Shown here: in pieces, positions 1 through 6,291 of the stretch
Position numbering within the stretch: position 1 is the stretch's first letter
Layout of the letters: every line of letters starts with the position of its first letter
IMG/VR virus record: IMGVR_UViG_2531839446_000012
Span: 1 to 7,318 of that record
Direction: 5' to 3' (one strand)
DNA: 7,318 bases
From: a virus
Lineage: Duplodnaviria; Heunggongvirae; Uroviricota; Caudoviricetes
Made by a program: the position numbers and the translations under genes
The notes under the pieces: model-generated
The model's database searches: none
Told to the model about the DNA's origin: nothing
What the model saw: the letters and a program-made list of their open reading frames with translations, nothing else

Positions 1-68
1 CACCTCTCCACCGAAAGTCAGTGCTGGCTGTTTTTTTCCTTAATAAAGCATCTGTAACTGAAACAGTC

Positions 69-84
69 CGCATATTGATAATAT
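69..84. repeat. Left copy of perfect 16-bp direct repeat CGCATATTGATAATAT flanking the IS
   Basis: Identical 16-mer at 69-84 and 1421-1436, directly abutting both IS ends. Candidate target-site duplication, but far longer than the 3-5 bp usual for IS3-family elements. Confidence 0.9.
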
Positions 85-175
85 TGAGCTGGCCCCCTGA
101 AATACCAGACAGTAGATGTATCTTAAAATAAGAGATAGGCTTGGATATATGTCTAACACTAGTTCTAATTTTGAG

Positions 176-544
176 ATGGCTGGCGTTTTGTTAGGAAAAG
201 AGGTGCGTAAACGTAAAACACCTCAGGAAAAAATCGCAATTATTCAACAGACTATGGAGCCGGGCATGACGGTGTCCCACGTGGCGCGTTTGCATGGAAT
301 TCAGCCCAGTCTGTTGTTTAAGTGGAAGAAACAATATCAGGAAGGAAGCCTCACTGCTGTGGCTGCCGGTGAAGACGTTGTTCCTGCTTCTGAACTGGCC
401 GCTGCAATAAAGCAGATTAATCAGCTTCAGCGTTTACTGGGTAAGAAAACCATGGAAGTTGAGATCCTCAAAGAAGCGGTGGAGTATGCACAATCGCGAA
501 AATGGATAGCGCATGTGCCCTTGTTACCTTCGGACAAGGAATAG
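176..544 (+). CDS. IS3-family transposase OrfA (HTH DNA-binding, InsC-like)
   Basis: ORF-track frame 116-544; product from the ATG at 176 ([25 protein letters not shown]...[26 protein letters not shown]) aligns with IS2 InsC as recalled. The longest ORF starts at 116 but the first 20 codons have no counterpart in IS2 OrfA; 149 is another possible start. Confidence 0.8.
497..505 (+). other. Candidate -1 ribosomal frameshift site for OrfAB (CGA AAA TGG; A4 run 499-502)
   Basis: Only homopolymeric stretch in the orfA/orfB overlap; slipping back one base on AAAA puts the ATG at 502-504 in frame and joins ...AQSRK to MDSACALV... It is shorter than the A6G motif of IS911-type elements. Confidence 0.4.
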
Positions 545-1383
545 CCCCGGTAAGCCGTGTTCTGGGCGTGTCACGTGCGCAGTTAACATTAAGGATGAAG
601 GCATCTGATAACAAGCCAGATAAACGGCGTCAGAGGCGCGATGAGGCTGCGGATGCAGAAGTCTTATCGCGCATCCTGGATATCATTGGCGATATGCCAG
701 CATACGGGTATCGCCGTGTCTGGGCGATACTCAGGCGGCAGTCCCGAAATGAAGGACTACCGTTCGTGAATGCAAAGCGCGTTTACCGGATAATGAGCGA
801 AAATAGCCTGTTGTTGTTACATGACAAACCATCACGACGGCAGCGGGAACATAAAGGCCGAATATCGGTGAAGGAAAGCGACCAGCGTTGGTGTTCTGAT
901 GGCTTTGAGTTCGGTTGCGATGATGGCGAAAAACTGCGTGTTACGTTCGTCCTGGACTGTTGCGATCGTGAAGCCATAGACTGGGCCGCAAGCACGGGAG
1001 GTTACGATAAAGCGACAGTGCAGGATGTGATGTTAGGAGCGATAGAAAAACGCTTTGGCGATAAAGTACCGGAACAGTCCATCCAGTGGCTGACAGATAA
1101 CGGTTCAGCGTACAGAGCGCATGAAACACGGCAGTTCGCCAGAGAGCTGAATCTGAAGCCCTGCACAACGGCAATCAGTAGCCCCCAGAGTAATGGAATG
1201 GCAGAACGGTTCGTGAAAACGATGAAGGAAGACTACATCGCGTTCATGCCGAAACCAAATGTAAGAACGGCATTGCATAACCTTGCAGTGGCGATCGAGC
1301 ATTACAATGAAAACCATCCGCATAGTGCGTTGGGTTATCGCTCTCCGCGAGAATATCGACGTCAGCGGGTAATGTTAACTTAA
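502..1383 (+). CDS. IS3-family transposase OrfB (integrase/DDE catalytic core, InsD-like), probably made as an OrfAB fusion by -1 frameshift
   Basis: 293-aa ORF in the -1 frame relative to orfA, overlapping it by 43 nt; typical IS3/IS2 OrfB sequence (YRRVWAIL...WCSDGFEF...DNGSAY...[11 protein letters not shown]...[12 protein letters not shown]). Confidence 0.85.
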
Positions 1384-1420
1384 GATACAACCCCTGTCTG
1401 AAAATAAGGGGGCAAGAACA

Positions 1421-1436
1421 CGCATATTGATAATAT
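1421..1436. repeat. Right copy of perfect 16-bp direct repeat CGCATATTGATAATAT flanking the IS
   Basis: See left copy; 16/16 identity, same orientation. Confidence 0.9.
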
Positions 1437-1496
1437 ATTGACAGGCATCATTGCTGTCTGTGAAAAATAAGTCTCTACAAACATATAAGGCCTTTT

Positions 1497-1535
1497 AGCC
1501 AGCGTCTTCTTTCAGGTCAGTCGCTGGCTTTTTTT
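1497..1535 (+). terminator. Plus-strand hairpin plus T-run (possible intrinsic terminator), abutting the nanS-p stop
   Basis: AGCCAGCG (1497-1504) pairs with CGCTGGCT (1522-1529), 8 bp perfect, followed by T6-7 (1530-1535). The 17-nt loop is long, so confidence is low. On the minus strand the U-run precedes the stem, so it is not a minus-strand terminator. Confidence 0.3.
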
Positions 1536-1536
1536 A

Positions 1537-3387
1537 TTATGCTGCCGGTGCATTTATCTCCAGCACCAGACTTTCTATCTCAACGCCATACGCTGCATTT
1601 TTTGTAACATCCGTCAGCGTCAGCGCATTCAGTCCCAGTGTCAGACCGTCTTTTATAACCTGGAATGCCGGGCCAGCCACTCCATTCAGTTTCGGAGTAA
1701 CCGTGGCACTGCCGGCGGTGAACACCAGCTCCAGCGTCTGCCAGTCGTTACCGTAATCGCCGAACTCCCCCAGCTTCGTGTTTCCGGCTTTCCTGTGATG
1801 CATCAGATTCACTCTGCCGTCAGTGGTCTGAGTGAAGTACGACATCAGGAACGGATTACCGGTACCCGTCATCGCCACACCATCAGGAACGGGAGCATCC
1901 GTATACAGATAAATCCCCAGCCCGAACTGATTGTTGGTCAGTGCGCCTGACAGGCGGAACTTACAGGTCAGTCTGCCGCCCTGTGTCAGCAGGGTAATTG
2001 CGTCATCCACCGGATGCGTCAGGGACCAGGTTTTATTGCTCTGCTTGGTGATCTTAAATACACCATCTGACAACTGAATTCCGCCATCCTTAATGCTCCA
2101 GCCCTGCGCAGCAGCCTCTCCGGCTGCCGGCAGCAGGGAGATTGTGCGAACGGACGTATCTGCAGACGGACCCGATGGCGTGTTGCCGCCGGGCGAGGGT
2201 TTGATTTCCGGTGCCTTACCACTGATGAAGGCTGAGGTGCGCCCGGCTGCGTTCAGAATAGCGGTTGCCATACGATCCGGAATAATGCTCCTGCGCGCCC
2301 ATGAACTGAAATGTGTCGGGCGGTTTGATGATACCTGGTTTCCATTCGTTCTCGATGCCGCACCGTAATATCCTGATGCCGGAATATCCGGATCTTCTGC
2401 CGGCGCGTTAGTGGCGGTATTGACGCCGTTACCGTCTGTCATGAAGGGCACAAAATAAACGCCCTCACTCTCCCTGTTTTTATACGCGCCGTACACGGTG
2501 TCGTACTGCGTGCCGTAGGTATTTTTCCAGTAATACGTCGTGTCACCACAAATCCACGGCACATCTGCAGCACTGCCACCATGGCACTGCGCGTTAAACA
2601 CGGAGAGGTCAGCACGAAACTGTGTCAGCATGGCTGTAAACAGCGCAGGTTGCTGTGCGTGGGTGGCGGCGCTCATGTCAAACTCTCCCTGCATCCAGCA
2701 CACCGCCAGCAACACATTTTTCGGGTTCTTCTGTAATGCAGCTTTAGTGCGCGCAATCAGGTCCTGATATAACGGTTTACCCACACCCCAGCGTGCCGAA
2801 TCCTGGCTGGCCCCCGTGTCCGCACTGAATGTCCCCTCAGCGCCCTGGGTGAATGCAGAACCACCACGACAGCATGGTACCAGCAGGATCCCCGCGTTAT
2901 TCGGGATATACGGAAGCAGTTTTTTGGCAATATGTAAGCCCTGGCCGACACAGCCGTACTGCCCTTTGCTCAGGTCTGCCTTCGGATGATTCAGCGTACT
3001 CATATCCTGCACATCATGCAGGCAGTGGTCGGCCGGAATAATATCGTTATATCTGCAGGCAGCCCCACCCGGCGTAACTGTACTGCGGCGCGCCAGCTGT
3101 TTAATGCGCGGATCCGGAGCATCGTATGAATCCGGAAGCGGAAGCCCTTCCCCGTAAGCCATTGCATTGGACTGCCCGGCCAGTACGATGACGTAGTACC
3201 AATCCGGCTCAGTTGCACCACTGACCACCACATCACCTTCTGCTGCAATCGCCTGCATCAGGGTATAAGGGGTTATGGCCACCGGACTACCAAACGGCTG
3301 CCAGCCCTCTTTCAGTTTGTGTGTCAGCTTTTCCGCAAGGTCTGACGGCGACGCCGCCCTGACAACATCATAATGTTTAATCGACAT
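1537..3387 (-). CDS. nanS-p: Prophage sialate 9-O-acetylesterase, NanS-p type (N-terminal DUF1737-like, SASA/SGNH esterase core, C-terminal carbohydrate-binding region)
   Basis: Intact 616-aa ORF; N-terminus MSIKHYDVVRAASPSDLAEKLTHKLKEGWQPFGSPVAI and the esterase motif VLAGQSNAMAYG match the NanS-p proteins of EHEC lambdoid prophages as recalled. SD GGGAGA lies 7 nt upstream of the ATG at 3387. It sits downstream of the tRNA cluster, as in Stx phages. Confidence 0.85.
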   Translation of the reverse strand: MSIKHYDVVRAASPSDLAEKLTHKLKEGWQPFGSPVAITPYTLMQAIAAEGDVVVSGATEPDWYYVIVLAGQSNAMAYGEGLPLPDSYDAPDPRIKQLARRSTVTPGGAACRYNDIIPADHCLHDVQDMSTLNHPKADLSKGQYGCVGQGLHIAKKLLPYIPNNAGILLVPCCRGGSAFTQGAEGTFSADTGASQDSARWGVGKPLYQDLIARTKAALQKNPKNVLLAVCWMQGEFDMSAATHAQQPALFTAMLTQFRADLSVFNAQCHGGSAADVPWICGDTTYYWKNTYGTQYDTVYGAYKNRESEGVYFVPFMTDGNGVNTATNAPAEDPDIPASGYYGAASRTNGNQVSSNRPTHFSSWARRSIIPDRMATAILNAAGRTSAFISGKAPEIKPSPGGNTPSGPSADTSVRTISLLPAAGEAAAQGWSIKDGGIQLSDGVFKITKQSNKTWSLTHPVDDAITLLTQGGRLTCKFRLSGALTNNQFGLGIYLYTDAPVPDGVAMTGTGNPFLMSYFTQTTDGRVNLMHHRKAGNTKLGEFGDYGNDWQTLELVFTAGSATVTPKLNGVAGPAFQVIKDGLTLGLNALTLTDVTKNAAYGVEIESLVLEINAPAA

Positions 3388-3473
3388 CGAATTTCTCCCG
3401 TGTACAGGAACAGAGTTAAAAAGCCGGAACCGGAATCAAATCACAGGATGACCATCTGCCAGTGGCTGGTCGT

Positions 3474-3500
3474 AAAAAAAAGGCCGCGCCATGCGCAGCC
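3474..3500 (-). terminator. Rho-independent terminator (minus strand) between the membrane ORF and nanS-p
   Basis: Minus-strand RNA GGCUGCGC-AUG-GCGCGGCC (8-bp GC-rich stem, one G-U) followed by U8 (reverse complement of the A8 run at 3474-3481). Confidence 0.6.
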
Positions 3501-3701
3501 GGAAATAAAGGGATAACGATGATAGTTTGAGAAAAACAGAAATAACACTTTTGTGGCAAAGCATGGTGCCGGGTGCCTCCCGGTGAATTCAGTACCAGCA
3601 CCTGAATCCGCGATTATCCCATATACCTACTCGCTGATTGCCCCTCCGCACAGGGGGATTCACCATGCAGAAGTGTTTTTAATAAACAGCAAACAAAAAA
3701 A

Positions 3702-3869
3702 TCAAGCATTATGCAGGCTGTTTCTTTTTATCACCGGCCACAGCAATACCACAATGCCGCAGACCAGCACCCCATCCGCCAGCACCGACATGATTCTGCT
3801 GGTGAAATCCACCATCACCACCAGAAACAGCAGGAGTGCAGCCACAGTCAGGCGCAGTTTTACCGTCAC
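3702..3869 (-). CDS. Small hydrophobic membrane protein (55 aa, two predicted TM helices), translationally coupled to the TerB-like gene
   Basis: Not in the ORF track (GTG start, under 60 aa). The GTG at 3869-3867 overlaps the TerB-like stop as GTGA, with GGAG 10 nt upstream. Product MTVKLRLTVAALLLFLVVMVDFTSRIMSVLADGVLVCGIVVLLWPVIKRNSLHNA. Same strand and operon position as its neighbour. Confidence 0.35.
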   Translation of the reverse strand: MTVKLRLTVAALLLFLVVMVDFTSRIMSVLADGVLVCGIVVLLWPVIKRNSLHNA

Positions 3870-4298
3870 AGGTGATTCTCCAGACGAAGACCCAGAACAC
3901 CGGCAATCTCTTCCAGCACCTTGCGCTCTTCCGGCTCAATTTCGCCGTCTGCCTCCGCAATGGCCACCGCCACATCCAGCACATCTTCCGCTTCACGCGT
4001 ATCGTGTTTCACATCCTCGATCTCACGTAACGCCGCACGACGACCAATTTTAAAGTTCGTATCCAGCTGACCGATAATGGTTGCGCTAATCGCATTAATT
4101 TCTGACGTAAACGCGGACAGCGCAGGCTGATTACGCAGTACCTGTTCGATCTTCGCTTTCTAGGAAGCCTCACATTCACCATCTGCACAGGCCACCAGGT
4201 ATGCGGCGTTAATCACCACCTGTGCCAGATCGCGTTTTTCAAACTTTTTAATTTCCGTTGCCGCTCTGCGGGCTTTTTTTACCAAAAATACCAAACAT
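3866..4298 (-). pseudogene. TerB-like (tellurite-resistance TerB domain) gene carrying a +1 frameshift and an in-frame amber codon
   Basis: ATG at 4298-4296 with AAGGA SD gives MFGIFGKK, then the frame breaks in the A7 run (plus T7 at 4274-4280). The downstream frame reads ARRAATEIKKFEKRDLAQVVINAAYLVACADGECEAS*KAKIEQVL...DVLDVAVAIAEADGEIEPEERKVLEEIAGVLGLRLENHL, with TAG at 4162-4160. The two ADG...E..K repeats are the TerB signature as recalled. Removing one A restores a single frame. Confidence 0.7.
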
Positions 4299-4430
4299 CG
4301 TGACGTTCCTTTGGGTGGGTGAGCCAACGCCCGGAAGCGATCTGCCCACAGAGAAAGTCACACTGACCACTCCGTAAGCTCACCCCCGAAAGGCTCTGTG
4401 GTTGATATGCACCGGGCGTGGCGCAGATAC

Positions 4431-4455
4431 AAAAAAGGCCCGCCGAAGCGAGCCT
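4431..4455 (-). terminator. Rho-independent terminator (minus strand) 12 nt after tRNA-Arg
   Basis: Minus-strand RNA AGGCUCGC-UUCG-GCGGGCCU (8-bp stem, UUCG tetraloop) followed by a U5-6 run. Confidence 0.65.
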
Positions 4456-4467
4456 GGAAAATAAGTG

Positions 4468-4544
4468 TGGCGCGTTGTAGTGGAGTCGAACCAGTGACCG
4501 ATTGCTTAGAAGGCAATTGCTCTGTCCGGCTGAGCTAACAACGC
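4468..4544 (-). tRNA. tRNA-Arg (anticodon UCU), phage argN/argO-like
   Basis: Hand-folded cloverleaf: acceptor GCGTTGT/ACAACGC, D-arm GCTC...GAGC, anticodon stem ATTGC/GCAAT with loop CTTCTAA, T-loop TTCGACT, discriminator G, encoded CCA. One C-C mismatch in the T-stem. Confidence 0.8.
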
Positions 4545-4644
4545 AGAATACCGATAATGGACCGCCATCGGGGACCCGCCCCCGCACCAACAACCCTGTT
4601 ATGGTGTCGTCTGCTCTTCCTGATAAGCTAATGGCGGTATGTGA

Positions 4645-4720
4645 TGGTGGCCCTTGCTGGATTTGAACCAGCGACCTGGCGATTATGAGTCGCTCGCTCT
4701 CACCACTGAGCTAAAGGGCC
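4645..4720 (-). tRNA. tRNA-Ile2 (anticodon CAU, ileX/ileZ-like; formally could be tRNA-Met)
   Basis: 76-nt cloverleaf GGCCCTTTAGCTCAGTGGTGAGAGCGAGCGACTCATAATCGCCAGGTCGCTGGTTCAAATCCAGCAAGGGCCACCA: 7-bp acceptor, T-arm GCTGG-TTCAAAT-CCAGC, anticodon loop CTCATAA. Very close to E. coli ileX as recalled. Confidence 0.85.
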
Positions 4721-4769
4721 GGGACCAGAATAATAATGGTGCGAAATTAATTCTGCAATCTCATCCGTT

Positions 4770-5820
4770 TCAAACGATTAAATCCTGAACTTCCCTGACT
4801 GTCTGCTCAAAACGTTCAGTCTCCAGCTCAACGCCAATTGCACGACGCCCGAGCGCCAGTGCCGCTTTTACCGTTGAACCTGAGCCCATAAAAAAATCTG
4901 CAACCAGGTCACCCGGACGACTGCTTGCGCTGATTATCTGCTGCAGCATTTCTGCCGGTTTTTCGCACGGATGTTTCCCGGGATAGAACTGCACCGGTTT
5001 ATGTGTCCACACATCCGTGTACGGCACCTGCGCCGTCACACCAAAATACCGCCGCAGATGCTTATATTCACTCTGCAGCTCCGCATACTGTCGGTTCAGA
5101 GAGGCATACGTATCCACCAGCTGGTGGTGGGGCTTTTCCAGTTCACCCCGCTGATGCTTCTCTTCTGCCACCCGGGCAAACAGTGCCTGTAATTTCAGAT
5201 AATCGCTTTCGTTCGGCAGCTGCCACTGACCGGCACTGAACCAGTGCGACACCATGTTTTTCTTTCCTGTGGCATCTGCAATCTGTTTTGCCGTTATCCC
5301 CAGGACAGCGCGCGCATCACGAAAGTAAGCAATCAGCGGGGCCATCACATGCTGTTTCAGTGCCCTACCCTTCGCCTCATACCCGGCATCTTTCGGACGA
5401 TACGGCCCCTGATAATGCTCTGCGAACAGAATGCGCTCTGTGGCGGGGAAATACGCCCGCAGGCTTTCCTTGTTGCACCCGTTCCAGCGTCCGGACGGCT
5501 TTTGCCCAGATGATATGGTTCAGCACGTTAAACCGCTCACGCATCATGATTTCGGTGTCAGATGCCAGACGATGGCCACAGAACAGGTAAAGACTTCCGG
5601 CAGGTTTCAGCACCCGCCAGAACTGCGCAAGACACTGGTCCAGCCACTTCAGGTAATCTTCATCACCCGCCCACTGGTTATCCCAGCCCTCGGGTTTCAC
5701 TTTGAAGTACGGCGGGTCCGTGACTATCAGGTCAACAGAATTTTCGGGTAACGACCGCATAAATTCCAGGCAGTCGGCGTTGATTAACTCACAACTGGAT
5801 ATTTTTACAGTATTAAGCAT
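4770..5820 (-). pseudogene. Orphan DNA N6-adenine methyltransferase (beta class, N6_N4_Mtase family), split by a +1 frameshift as given
   Basis: N-terminal ORF 5377-5820 has motif IV (DLIVTDPPYF) and NHIIWAK; C-terminal ORF 4770-5348 has HPCEKP and motif I (DFFMGSGST). After WAK the N frame becomes Arg-rich junk, while the +1 frame continues plausibly (PSGRWNGCNKESLRAYFPATERILFAEHYQGPYRP...). Break is at the T4 run 5500-5503 (expected T3). No restriction enzyme gene nearby. Confidence 0.7.
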
Positions 5821-5852
5821 GGATCATTAAGCCTGTCTCTGATAGGCTCATT

Positions 5853-5871
5853 CTGCTTTTGCGCAAAGCAG
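5853..5871 (-). other. Stem-loop (7-bp stem, 5-nt loop) in the MTase leader
   Basis: CTGCTTT (5853-5859) pairs with AAAGCAG (5865-5871); no U-run follows. Confidence 0.3.
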
Positions 5872-5912
5872 TGGGCCTGAGGTTTGCTTGTGAACCCAAC
5901 GCATGAGCAGAT

Positions 5913-5943
5913 GGCTGGTGGGTGCCCCTTACACCCACCAGCC
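5913..5943 (-). other. Perfect 12-bp inverted repeat with 7-nt loop in the MTase leader
   Basis: GGCTGGTGGGTG (5913-5924) and CACCCACCAGCC (5932-5943) are exact reverse complements; loop CCCCTTA. No U-run on either strand, so not a canonical terminator. Confidence 0.4.
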
Positions 5944-5960
5944 GCCCATTTACCACAAAT

Positions 5961-5984
5961 AAAAAAGCCTTCAGGACTGAAGGC
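5961..5984 (-). terminator. Rho-independent terminator (minus strand) overlapping the stop of the small wHTH ORF
   Basis: Minus-strand RNA GCCUUCAG-UC-CUGAAGGC (7-8 bp stem) followed by UUUUUUAUUU. Confidence 0.6.
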
Positions 5985-6168
5985 GTCTGTAACAACCAAA
6001 CTGATAGTCTGCCAGACCCGCCATAACCAGCTGGGTCAGTATTAACTGGCAGCGTTCGCGTGAAAGGTAAGTATTCTGCGCAATCTCCCCGACTGTCGCC
6101 GGGTCGGTAACGCTTAATTCATTAAACACCACTCTGGCGGTTTCTGTCATATCCTGCTGTTTCAGCAT
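5971..6168 (-). CDS. Small winged-helix/HTH DNA-binding protein (65 aa), function unknown
   Basis: Internal ATG of ORF-track entry 5971-6291, product MLKQQDMTETARVVFNELSVTDPATVGEIAQNTYLSRERCQLILTQLVMAGLADYQFGCYRRLQS; the N-terminal extension is rejected because it crosses the upstream terminator and looks non-protein-like. HTH-like segment TVGEIAQNTYLSRERCQLILTQLVMAGL; weak SD AAGGG upstream. Confidence 0.45.
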   Translation of the reverse strand: MLKQQDMTETARVVFNELSVTDPATVGEIAQNTYLSRERCQLILTQLVMAGLADYQFGCYRRLQS

Positions 6169-6291
6169 GTCTTTTTCCCTTTTCCGGTTAACGTGACACA
6201 CCAATAACTCTTGTCGAAAAAGCCAGCAACCTGAAAGAACGGTATTAATAACCACCAGCGAATTTATTGCGCTGCTGTATATTACGGACAC

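Follow-up and report, generated by a model that had tools for sequence, protein, structure and literature searches.

The length of the target-site duplication left by an insertion sequence (IS) reports the geometry of the target-bound transposase or integrase, and it serves as a family-level diagnostic in IS annotation. For the IS3 family, Kojima, drawing on ISfinder, gave 4 bp for the IS407 subgroup, 5 bp for the IS2 subgroup and 3 bp for the other members, and described these lengths as 'relatively conserved' (PMC10045372). The 5-bp duplication of the IS2 group is also stated in PMC13463583, and a 2026 genome paper called 5-bp repeats 'characteristic of IS2 insertions' and listed ISEc48 without comment. 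Several length classes are known from other families. Kojima listed 6 or ~15 bp for IS481, 5-6, 15-17 and 24-29 bp for IS1202, and ~4, 15-16 and ~25 bp for IS481EU; the spacing of ~10 bp between classes was linked to one helical turn, with 'no clue' as to how the 15- and 25-bp classes arise (PMC10045372). Siguier and colleagues divided the IS1202 family, whose transposases are distantly related to those of IS3 and IS481, into the subgroups ISAba32 (5-6 bp), ISTde1 (16-17 bp) and IS1202 (27-28 bp), with class-specific transposase indels and terminal repeats (bioRxiv 10.1101/2022.12.17.520857). Here we analysed 7,318 nucleotides of a Caudoviricetes record (IMG/VR IMGVR_UViG_2531839446_000012, positions 1 to 7,318), referred to as the window, in which an ISEc48-type element related to IS2 is flanked by a 16-bp direct repeat. 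We found that ISEc48 and its close relatives normally leave a duplication of 15 or 16 bp, and that the repeat is no peculiarity of this site.

The repeated 16-mer occurs exactly twice in the window, and both copies adjoin the ends of the IS directly, as an initial annotation of the window had reported. Allowing up to 2 mismatches gave no additional match in the window, and 200 dinucleotide-preserving shuffles gave 0 matches. The features concerned are:

69-84, + strand: left copy of the target-site duplication, 16 bp, CGCATATTGATAATAT; exact repeat, single in the empty sites L001-L003
85-1420, + strand: ISEc48-type IS, 1336 bp, IS3 family/IS2 group, with 5'-TG...CA-3' termini
1421-1436, + strand: right copy of the target-site duplication, 16 bp; exact repeat, compared with the empty sites L001-L003

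The element is 99.3% identical end to end to many RefSeq copies annotated as 'IS3-like element ISEc48 family transposase'. Alignments with these copies end at 85 and 1420 in unrelated contexts, and the ends of the element are therefore fixed.

The uninterrupted locus was found in three prophages of complete Escherichia coli genomes (L001-L003), which are 98.4-99.8% identical to the 5.9 kb right of the IS and carry no IS at this position. Each holds a single copy of the 16-mer, within ...ctgaaacaatCCGCATATTGATAATATattgacaggc..., and the left flank of the window runs seamlessly into the empty-site sequence. The repeat thus arose by target duplication, and no tandem repeat preceded the insertion. 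The initial annotation had offered two explanations, an unusually long duplication or an insertion into a pre-existing tandem or near-palindromic repeat, and had named an empty site with two copies as the observation that would decide for the second. No such site was seen, and the first explanation is the one that stands. An insertion into an older repeat, with no long duplication at all, is vanishingly improbable. The empty site does hold a short internal repeat, ATATTGA twice, 11 bp apart, but the IS would still have needed a duplication of its own. The left flank ends with AATAT and the right flank begins with CGCAT, so the junctions conceal no ordinary 5-bp duplication. Furthermore, the same 15-16-bp repeat accompanies 33 other insertions at unrelated sequences.

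Using a 1700-bp junction query with at least 80% coverage required, we found no other occupied allele, with the IS at this locus, in 5426 complete E. coli genomes, and none was found in IMG/VR. A look-up by exact protein identity retrieved just the contig from which the window comes, ADUS01000070.1. At window position 66, 3 bp left of the 16-mer, the window has G where all three empty-site prophages have A; the other positions of the 84-bp left flank are identical to them, and the difference is probably an ordinary single-nucleotide polymorphism.

Empty sites were also reconstructed for other insertions by keeping a single copy of the repeat. The reconstructed site in dcuC, a 16-bp case, gave a 100% full-length match to the intact gene in 4355 genomes, and that in cvaB, a 15-bp case, did so in 405 genomes. 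Both 15 and 16 bp are therefore true duplications of target DNA. Bases were neither added nor lost at the verified empty sites.

Duplication length was measured as the longest exact repeat abutting both IS ends. Another 16 copies of ISEc48 were taken from E. coli chromosomes and plasmids, in surroundings unrelated to one another, where the genes hit include integrase, alpha-galactosidase, cvaB, dcuC, fimbrial ushers, porin and glycosyltransferase. The 1336-bp termini were identical throughout, and the repeat was 16 bp in 5 copies, 15 bp in 9 and absent in 2. With the window included, 15 of the 17 copies have an exact 15- or 16-bp flanking repeat. In strain 3R, which carries identical ISEc48 copies, the plasmid copy has 16 bp and the chromosomal copy 15 bp. 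The initial annotation took this insertion to be exceptional, IS3-family elements normally making 3-5 bp; instead, every other ISEc48 copy with a repeat has 15 or 16 bp.

Relatives were collected in a metagenome search with the transposase protein OrfB, which returned a graded series; for diverged elements the ends were located from OrfB-anchored coordinates with relaxed end motifs. Six complete-genome copies of one sister lineage were added to the tally of independent insertions that retain the repeat:

ISEc48-type: 15 bp in 10 insertions, 16 bp in 6
~90% OrfB-identity type, ends TGAACCGG...GGTCAAGGACA: 15 bp in 2 insertions, 16 bp in 4
~78% OrfB-identity type, ends TGATGTAGCCCCC...GGGTCAAGATCA: 15 bp in 8 insertions, 16 bp in 4
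Total (n=34): 15 bp in 20 insertions, 16 bp in 14

With lengths measured up to 30 bp, none of these 34 insertions had a repeat of 3-6 bp and none had one longer than 16 bp. The ~78% type is present in ~2000 plasmid records of Klebsiella and Enterobacter. The sister lineages are labelled only 'IS3 family transposase' in RefSeq and PLSDB. The ~78% type may be ISEcl1, on the basis of its co-occurrence with IS1X-type elements as in PMC7319535.

The uniformity of these lengths bears on two further explanations. The repeat of the window could have come from two separate 5-bp insertions in the same orientation, 11 bp apart on different chromosomes, joined by homologous recombination within the IS. 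Two similar target motifs (NNNAT|ATTGA) do lie 11 bp apart at the locus and might be equivalent hotspots, and recombination mediated by IS copies does occur, some copies being without a duplication. Nevertheless, we consider such a history very improbable, since it predicts variable lengths, with deletions as often as duplications, whereas 15 or 16 bp was observed in 34 of 34 insertions that share no motif. In addition, no IS allele with a short duplication was present at the locus in the complete E. coli genomes searched. Alternatively, the two IS ends might attack independently, in an uncoordinated half-site integration that leaves a duplication of arbitrary length. Non-concerted integration by retroviral integrases is known in vitro. 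However, this process predicts a broad range of lengths including deletions, and only 15 or 16 bp was seen, with no base extra or missing at the verified empty sites, which makes it highly unlikely here.

Across 29 sites aligned on either edge of the duplication, no position had meaningful information content, and there was neither an AT-rich core nor symmetry. The absence of a target consensus indicates that duplication length depends on which element inserts, not on where it inserts. The initial annotation had also suggested a preference for targets resembling the IS end, on the basis of the right-flank sequence TTGACAGGC and the IS tip TGAGCTGGC. This suggestion did not hold: the two match at 5 of 9 positions, TTGACAGGC is already in the empty site, and over the 29 insertion sites the best flank-to-tip match averaged 3.9 of 9 compared with 3.95 in shuffled flanks.

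As a control, IS2 was examined by the same procedure. The copies came from a scan of genome contigs with a degenerate left-end pattern, which gave only IS2-type ends and no ISEc48. Among 32 distinct insertions in representative genomes, 20 had a duplication of exactly 5 bp and the other 12 had none; none was longer. Duplications of 5 bp were also found in IS2-like elements of Klebsiella, Scandinavium and Rahnella and in two metagenomic lineages; together with IS2, these are relatives at 56-66% OrfB identity. In a neighbour-joining tree of OrfB, the elements with long duplications formed one clade, apart from all 5-bp lineages. OrfB identity in this tree is 77-100% among the long-duplication elements and 54-65% between them and the 5-bp lineages. 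No intermediate length of 7-13 bp occurred in any IS2-group lineage sampled. The simplest reading of this distribution would be that the length changed once, on the stem branch of the long-duplication clade. Together, these data show that the duplication arises in one step with insertion, is always 15 or 16 bp, belongs to one clade only, with a length class that follows the transposase phylogeny, and is independent of the target sequence. The repeat in the window is thus very probably the ordinary duplication left when an ISEc48-type element inserted between the nanS-p-like esterase and holin genes of a lambdoid prophage.

The element itself has the following parts:

85-126, + strand: left terminal inverted repeat (IRL), ~40 bp, imperfect, starting TGAGCTGGCCCCCTGAAATACCAGACAG; inverted-repeat pair from the comparison with the right repeat
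176-544, + strand: orfA, a DNA-binding protein of the HTH_Tnp_1 type, from the open reading frame (ORF) list (Pfam HTH_Tnp_1, E = 3e-18)
499-502, + strand: candidate site of -1 programmed frameshifting, where A AAA precedes an ATG of the -1 frame, read from the sequence
502-1383, + strand: orfB, the catalytic part of a DDE transposase (Pfam rve 2.9e-18, rve_3 4.3e-16, HTH_21 1.3e-09)
1379-1420, + strand: right terminal inverted repeat (IRR), ending ...GGGGGCAAGAACA, from the same comparison

The termini read TGAGCTGG... from 85 and ...AAGAACA up to 1420, and IRL and IRR align over ~40 bp. The start of orfA at 176 is that of the RefSeq coding sequence in identical copies (L092); an in-frame ATG lies upstream at 116. 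orfB (502-1383) begins within orfA (116/176-544) and is read at -1 relative to it, and identical copies carry the annotation 'programmed frameshift'. The slip site that joins the two frames is probably the A AAA at 499-502, judging from its position and the ATG that follows.

The two partly overlapping ORFs, the second at -1 to the first, the rve-type DDE core with an N-terminal helix-turn-helix (HTH), and the imperfect TG...CA inverted repeats are all features of the IS3 family. The relationship to IS2 is visible in OrfB, which is ~62% identical, in a highly similar OrfA, and in the inverted-repeat core CTGGCCCCCTGAA...CCAGACA that the two have in common. DNA identity to IS2 is only ~66-69%, and the label 'IS2-like' given by the initial annotation is accordingly a fair one in the broad sense of IS3 family, IS2 group. 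ISEc48 is presumably also an IS2-group entry in ISfinder. The 5-bp duplication stated for the group is a feature that the element lacks, with 16 bp in the window and 15 or 16 bp in the whole repeat-bearing clade. We therefore file the element in the IS3 family and, by its sequence, in the IS2 group, while its behaviour is that of the long class of IS481 and IS1202. A class of 15-16 bp, as against 5 bp in the sister lineages, fits the pattern of classes spaced by a helical turn; this is a likeness in behaviour and not family membership.

The two classes also differ in their ends and proteins. All long-duplication elements have the canonical 5'-TG at both ends, whereas the left end of every 5-bp lineage is 5'-TA. 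OrfB differs between the classes by two compensating indels of 2 amino acids (aa) in its N-terminal half and by 14 fixed substitutions. One of these follows the catalytic Glu, where AERF stands against AESF, and three residues further on KED stands against KRD. The motif at the second catalytic Asp is likewise class-specific, with VEWLTDNGS as one of the two versions. OrfA shows 12 fixed differences. These differences in tip, indels and substitutions are correlations with duplication length and only candidates for its cause.

Several elements with unusual combinations of ends were also observed. In L123 and L164, the sequence that precedes the OrfB match on its left side (~2030-2130) is IS2-like (...gaatctccagacagttggtatcacttaaattagtgatag..., OrfA beginning much as MIDVLGP), and OrfB and the right end are of the ~77% type; these elements look like hybrids between 5-bp and 15-16-bp lineages. 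In Escherichia albertii NBRC 107761 (L050, ~4030-4060), the left end TGAGCTGGCCCCCTGAATCTCCAGACAACCAATA combines the TGAG tip of ISEc48-type elements with a terminal repeat that is of the IS2 type in all other respects. A right end to go with it was not found within range, and this left end may be a further variant or a remnant. In metagenome contig SKEK01002701.1 (L140, 3407-3440), a ~78%-type right end is followed by one base (C) and then by the IS2 left end TAGACTGGCCCCC...; here two different IS2-group elements stand end to end, which may reflect an insertion beside a related IS end.

How might a transposase so similar to that of IS2 produce the longer duplication? We propose that the transposase complex would attach the two 3'-OH ends of the IS to opposite target strands, at phosphates separated by 15-16 bp. 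Two single-stranded gaps would be left, and their repair by the host would duplicate the interval of 15-16 bp. This stagger would correspond to that of IS2 plus one turn of B-DNA (5 + 10.5), so that the scissile phosphates would retain their rotational setting, both on one face of the helix but one turn (~35 Å) farther apart. Such a shift would be explained best by a discrete change in the target-capture complex, in which the active sites of other subunits may be used, a different multimer may be formed, or the target may be looped or bent differently. The absence of intermediate lengths in the sampled lineages fits a discrete change of architecture and not a gradual drift of spacing. A PDB sequence search gave no match to a related IS3-family transpososome structure.

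IS3-family elements transpose by a copy-out-paste-in route, through a circular intermediate in which the two ends abut, and the circle junction of IS2 has a spacer of 1-2 bp. A hint of such an intermediate comes from metagenome contig OJTV01001662.1 (L149, 1969-1994), in which just one base (G) separates a ~78%-type right end from a following left end of that type. The arrangement is like that of an IS circle, or of a tandem dimer, whose ends are spaced by 1 bp. The first of the two copies is without its own left part, and the contig is possibly chimeric. If the junction is real, donor-side geometry would be unchanged and only target capture would differ.

Some points weigh against the interpretation given above. 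Every duplication length was read from standing genomic copies. Among the metagenomic copies of the clade, 23 of 38 have no repeat at all, which we would attribute to chimeric assembly across the repeated element or to recombination between IS copies. The OrfB tree was built simply from distances among 17 sequences and its branches carry no support values, and the idea of an added helical turn comes from geometric reasoning only.

A stagger of 15-16 bp could also be real and still arise from a spacing of active sites that has nothing to do with the helical repeat, in which case the sum of 5 and 10.5 would be a coincidence. Transposases with duplications of 7-12 bp show that many spacings are possible, and the PDB search gave no structure for this family. 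On the other hand, the jump of ~10 bp recurs independently in IS481, in IS1202 (5-6, 16-17 and 27-28 bp) and in IS481EU (~4, 15 and 25 bp), all relatives of the IS3 transposases, and lengths of 7-13 bp are missing from the IS2-group lineages. We therefore regard a coincidence as rather unlikely. Returning to the added helical turn, we put forward tentatively a broader proposal, for which the odds are somewhat less than even: the ISEc48 clade may be an unrecognised 'plus one helical turn' class of the IS3 family, in which a few changes (the TG/TA tip, the 2-aa indels and the residues by the catalytic Glu) toggle between two target-capture geometries, and the same toggle may lie behind the 5-, 15- and 25-bp classes of IS481, IS1202 and IS481EU.

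The window makes up the whole of contig ADUS01000070.1 in the draft assembly GCA_000188875.2, and it covers the late regulatory region of a prophage of the lambdoid, Stx-phage-like kind. Its phage genes, all on the - strand, encode RusA, a DUF1133 protein, a DNA methyltransferase, two tRNAs, TerB/DUF3927 remnants and a SASA esterase. The gene next to the insertion is:

1537-3387, - strand: SASA/DUF6645 carbohydrate esterase gene, nanS-p/yjhS-like, from the annotation of L001-L003 (Pfam DUF1737, SASA, DUF6645)

The IS lies in the intergenic region ~100 bp downstream of the end of this gene, ahead of the holin gene in related prophages, and its transposase genes are oriented opposite to phage late transcription. 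For the window, this is a routine single IS insertion in a prophage intergenic region. Two GC-rich hairpins, each followed by a T-run on the + strand, flank the insertion site. One is at 12-40 (GCCAGCAC...GTGCTGGC, then TGTTTTTTT) and is completed by the L001 sequence left of the window; the other is at 1498-1535 (GCCAGCG...CGCTGGC, then TTTTTTT). Both resemble terminators for transcription that runs against the phage late genes.

Two further observations concern the prophage genes. The DNA methyltransferase gene (- strand) is split into ORFs at 5377-5820 and 4770-5348 by a one-base insertion in an A-run near 5503, which reads GGGCAAAAGCC in the window; L001, where the gene is intact (349 aa), has GGGCAAAGCC, and the rest of the 1071 aligned bases are identical. 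The split may reflect a true frameshift, or else a homopolymer error in the sequencing of this older draft assembly. The tRNA genes at 4468-4544 and 4645-4720 (- strand) are a tRNA-Arg (tct) and a tRNA with a CAT anticodon, which ARAGORN calls Met and RefSeq, in the matching prophages, calls tRNA-Ile (presumably lysidine-modified). Between the two, the related prophage L003 has an additional tRNA and L002 an IS421 insertion.

A full-text literature search found no report of 15-16-bp duplications for ISEc48, ISEcl1 or any other IS2-group element, although the direct-repeat (DR) field of ISfinder may hold values. Relative to the literature found, an IS2-group clade with duplications of 15-16 bp is new, with the reservation that ISfinder may already catalogue it. 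A common enterobacterial clade of IS2 relatives thus contradicts the textbook value of its subgroup, which should be of interest to the transposition field. There is also a practical consequence, because annotation that expects 5-bp repeats will misplace the ends of these common elements or misread simple insertions as rearrangements.

Compared with known systems, the ISEc48/IS2 pair resembles the IS1202 family in having discrete length classes ~10-11 bp apart that are tied to phylogenetic subgroups (bioRxiv 10.1101/2022.12.17.520857). It differs in that IS1202 elements belong to another family, whose transposase is encoded by one ORF without frameshifting. The 27-28-bp class of IS1202 was not seen in the IS2 group here, and the differences between the IS2-group classes are much smaller (2-aa indels only). 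IS481 and the eukaryotic IS481EU/Banshee elements share the class of ~15-16 bp with ISEc48, and there too one element can give both 15 and 16 bp (PMC10045372). Unlike the ISEc48 clade, which gives 15 or 16 bp only, and the IS2 lineages, which give 5 bp only, one IS481EU element family gives several classes. The closest likeness is to IS2 itself, which is 1331 bp long compared with 1336 bp, has the same gene pair, orfA (HTH) and orfB (DDE, rve), linked through a -1 frameshift, and has similar terminal repeats. It differs from ISEc48 in duplicating 5 bp instead of 15-16 bp, in its 5'-TA instead of 5'-TG left tip, and in an OrfB that is longer at the C-terminus. IS2, which is well studied and open to experiment, and ISEc48 are thus a natural pair, closely matched in size, gene layout and ends, in which the determinant of the stagger could be located by swaps of domains or residues.

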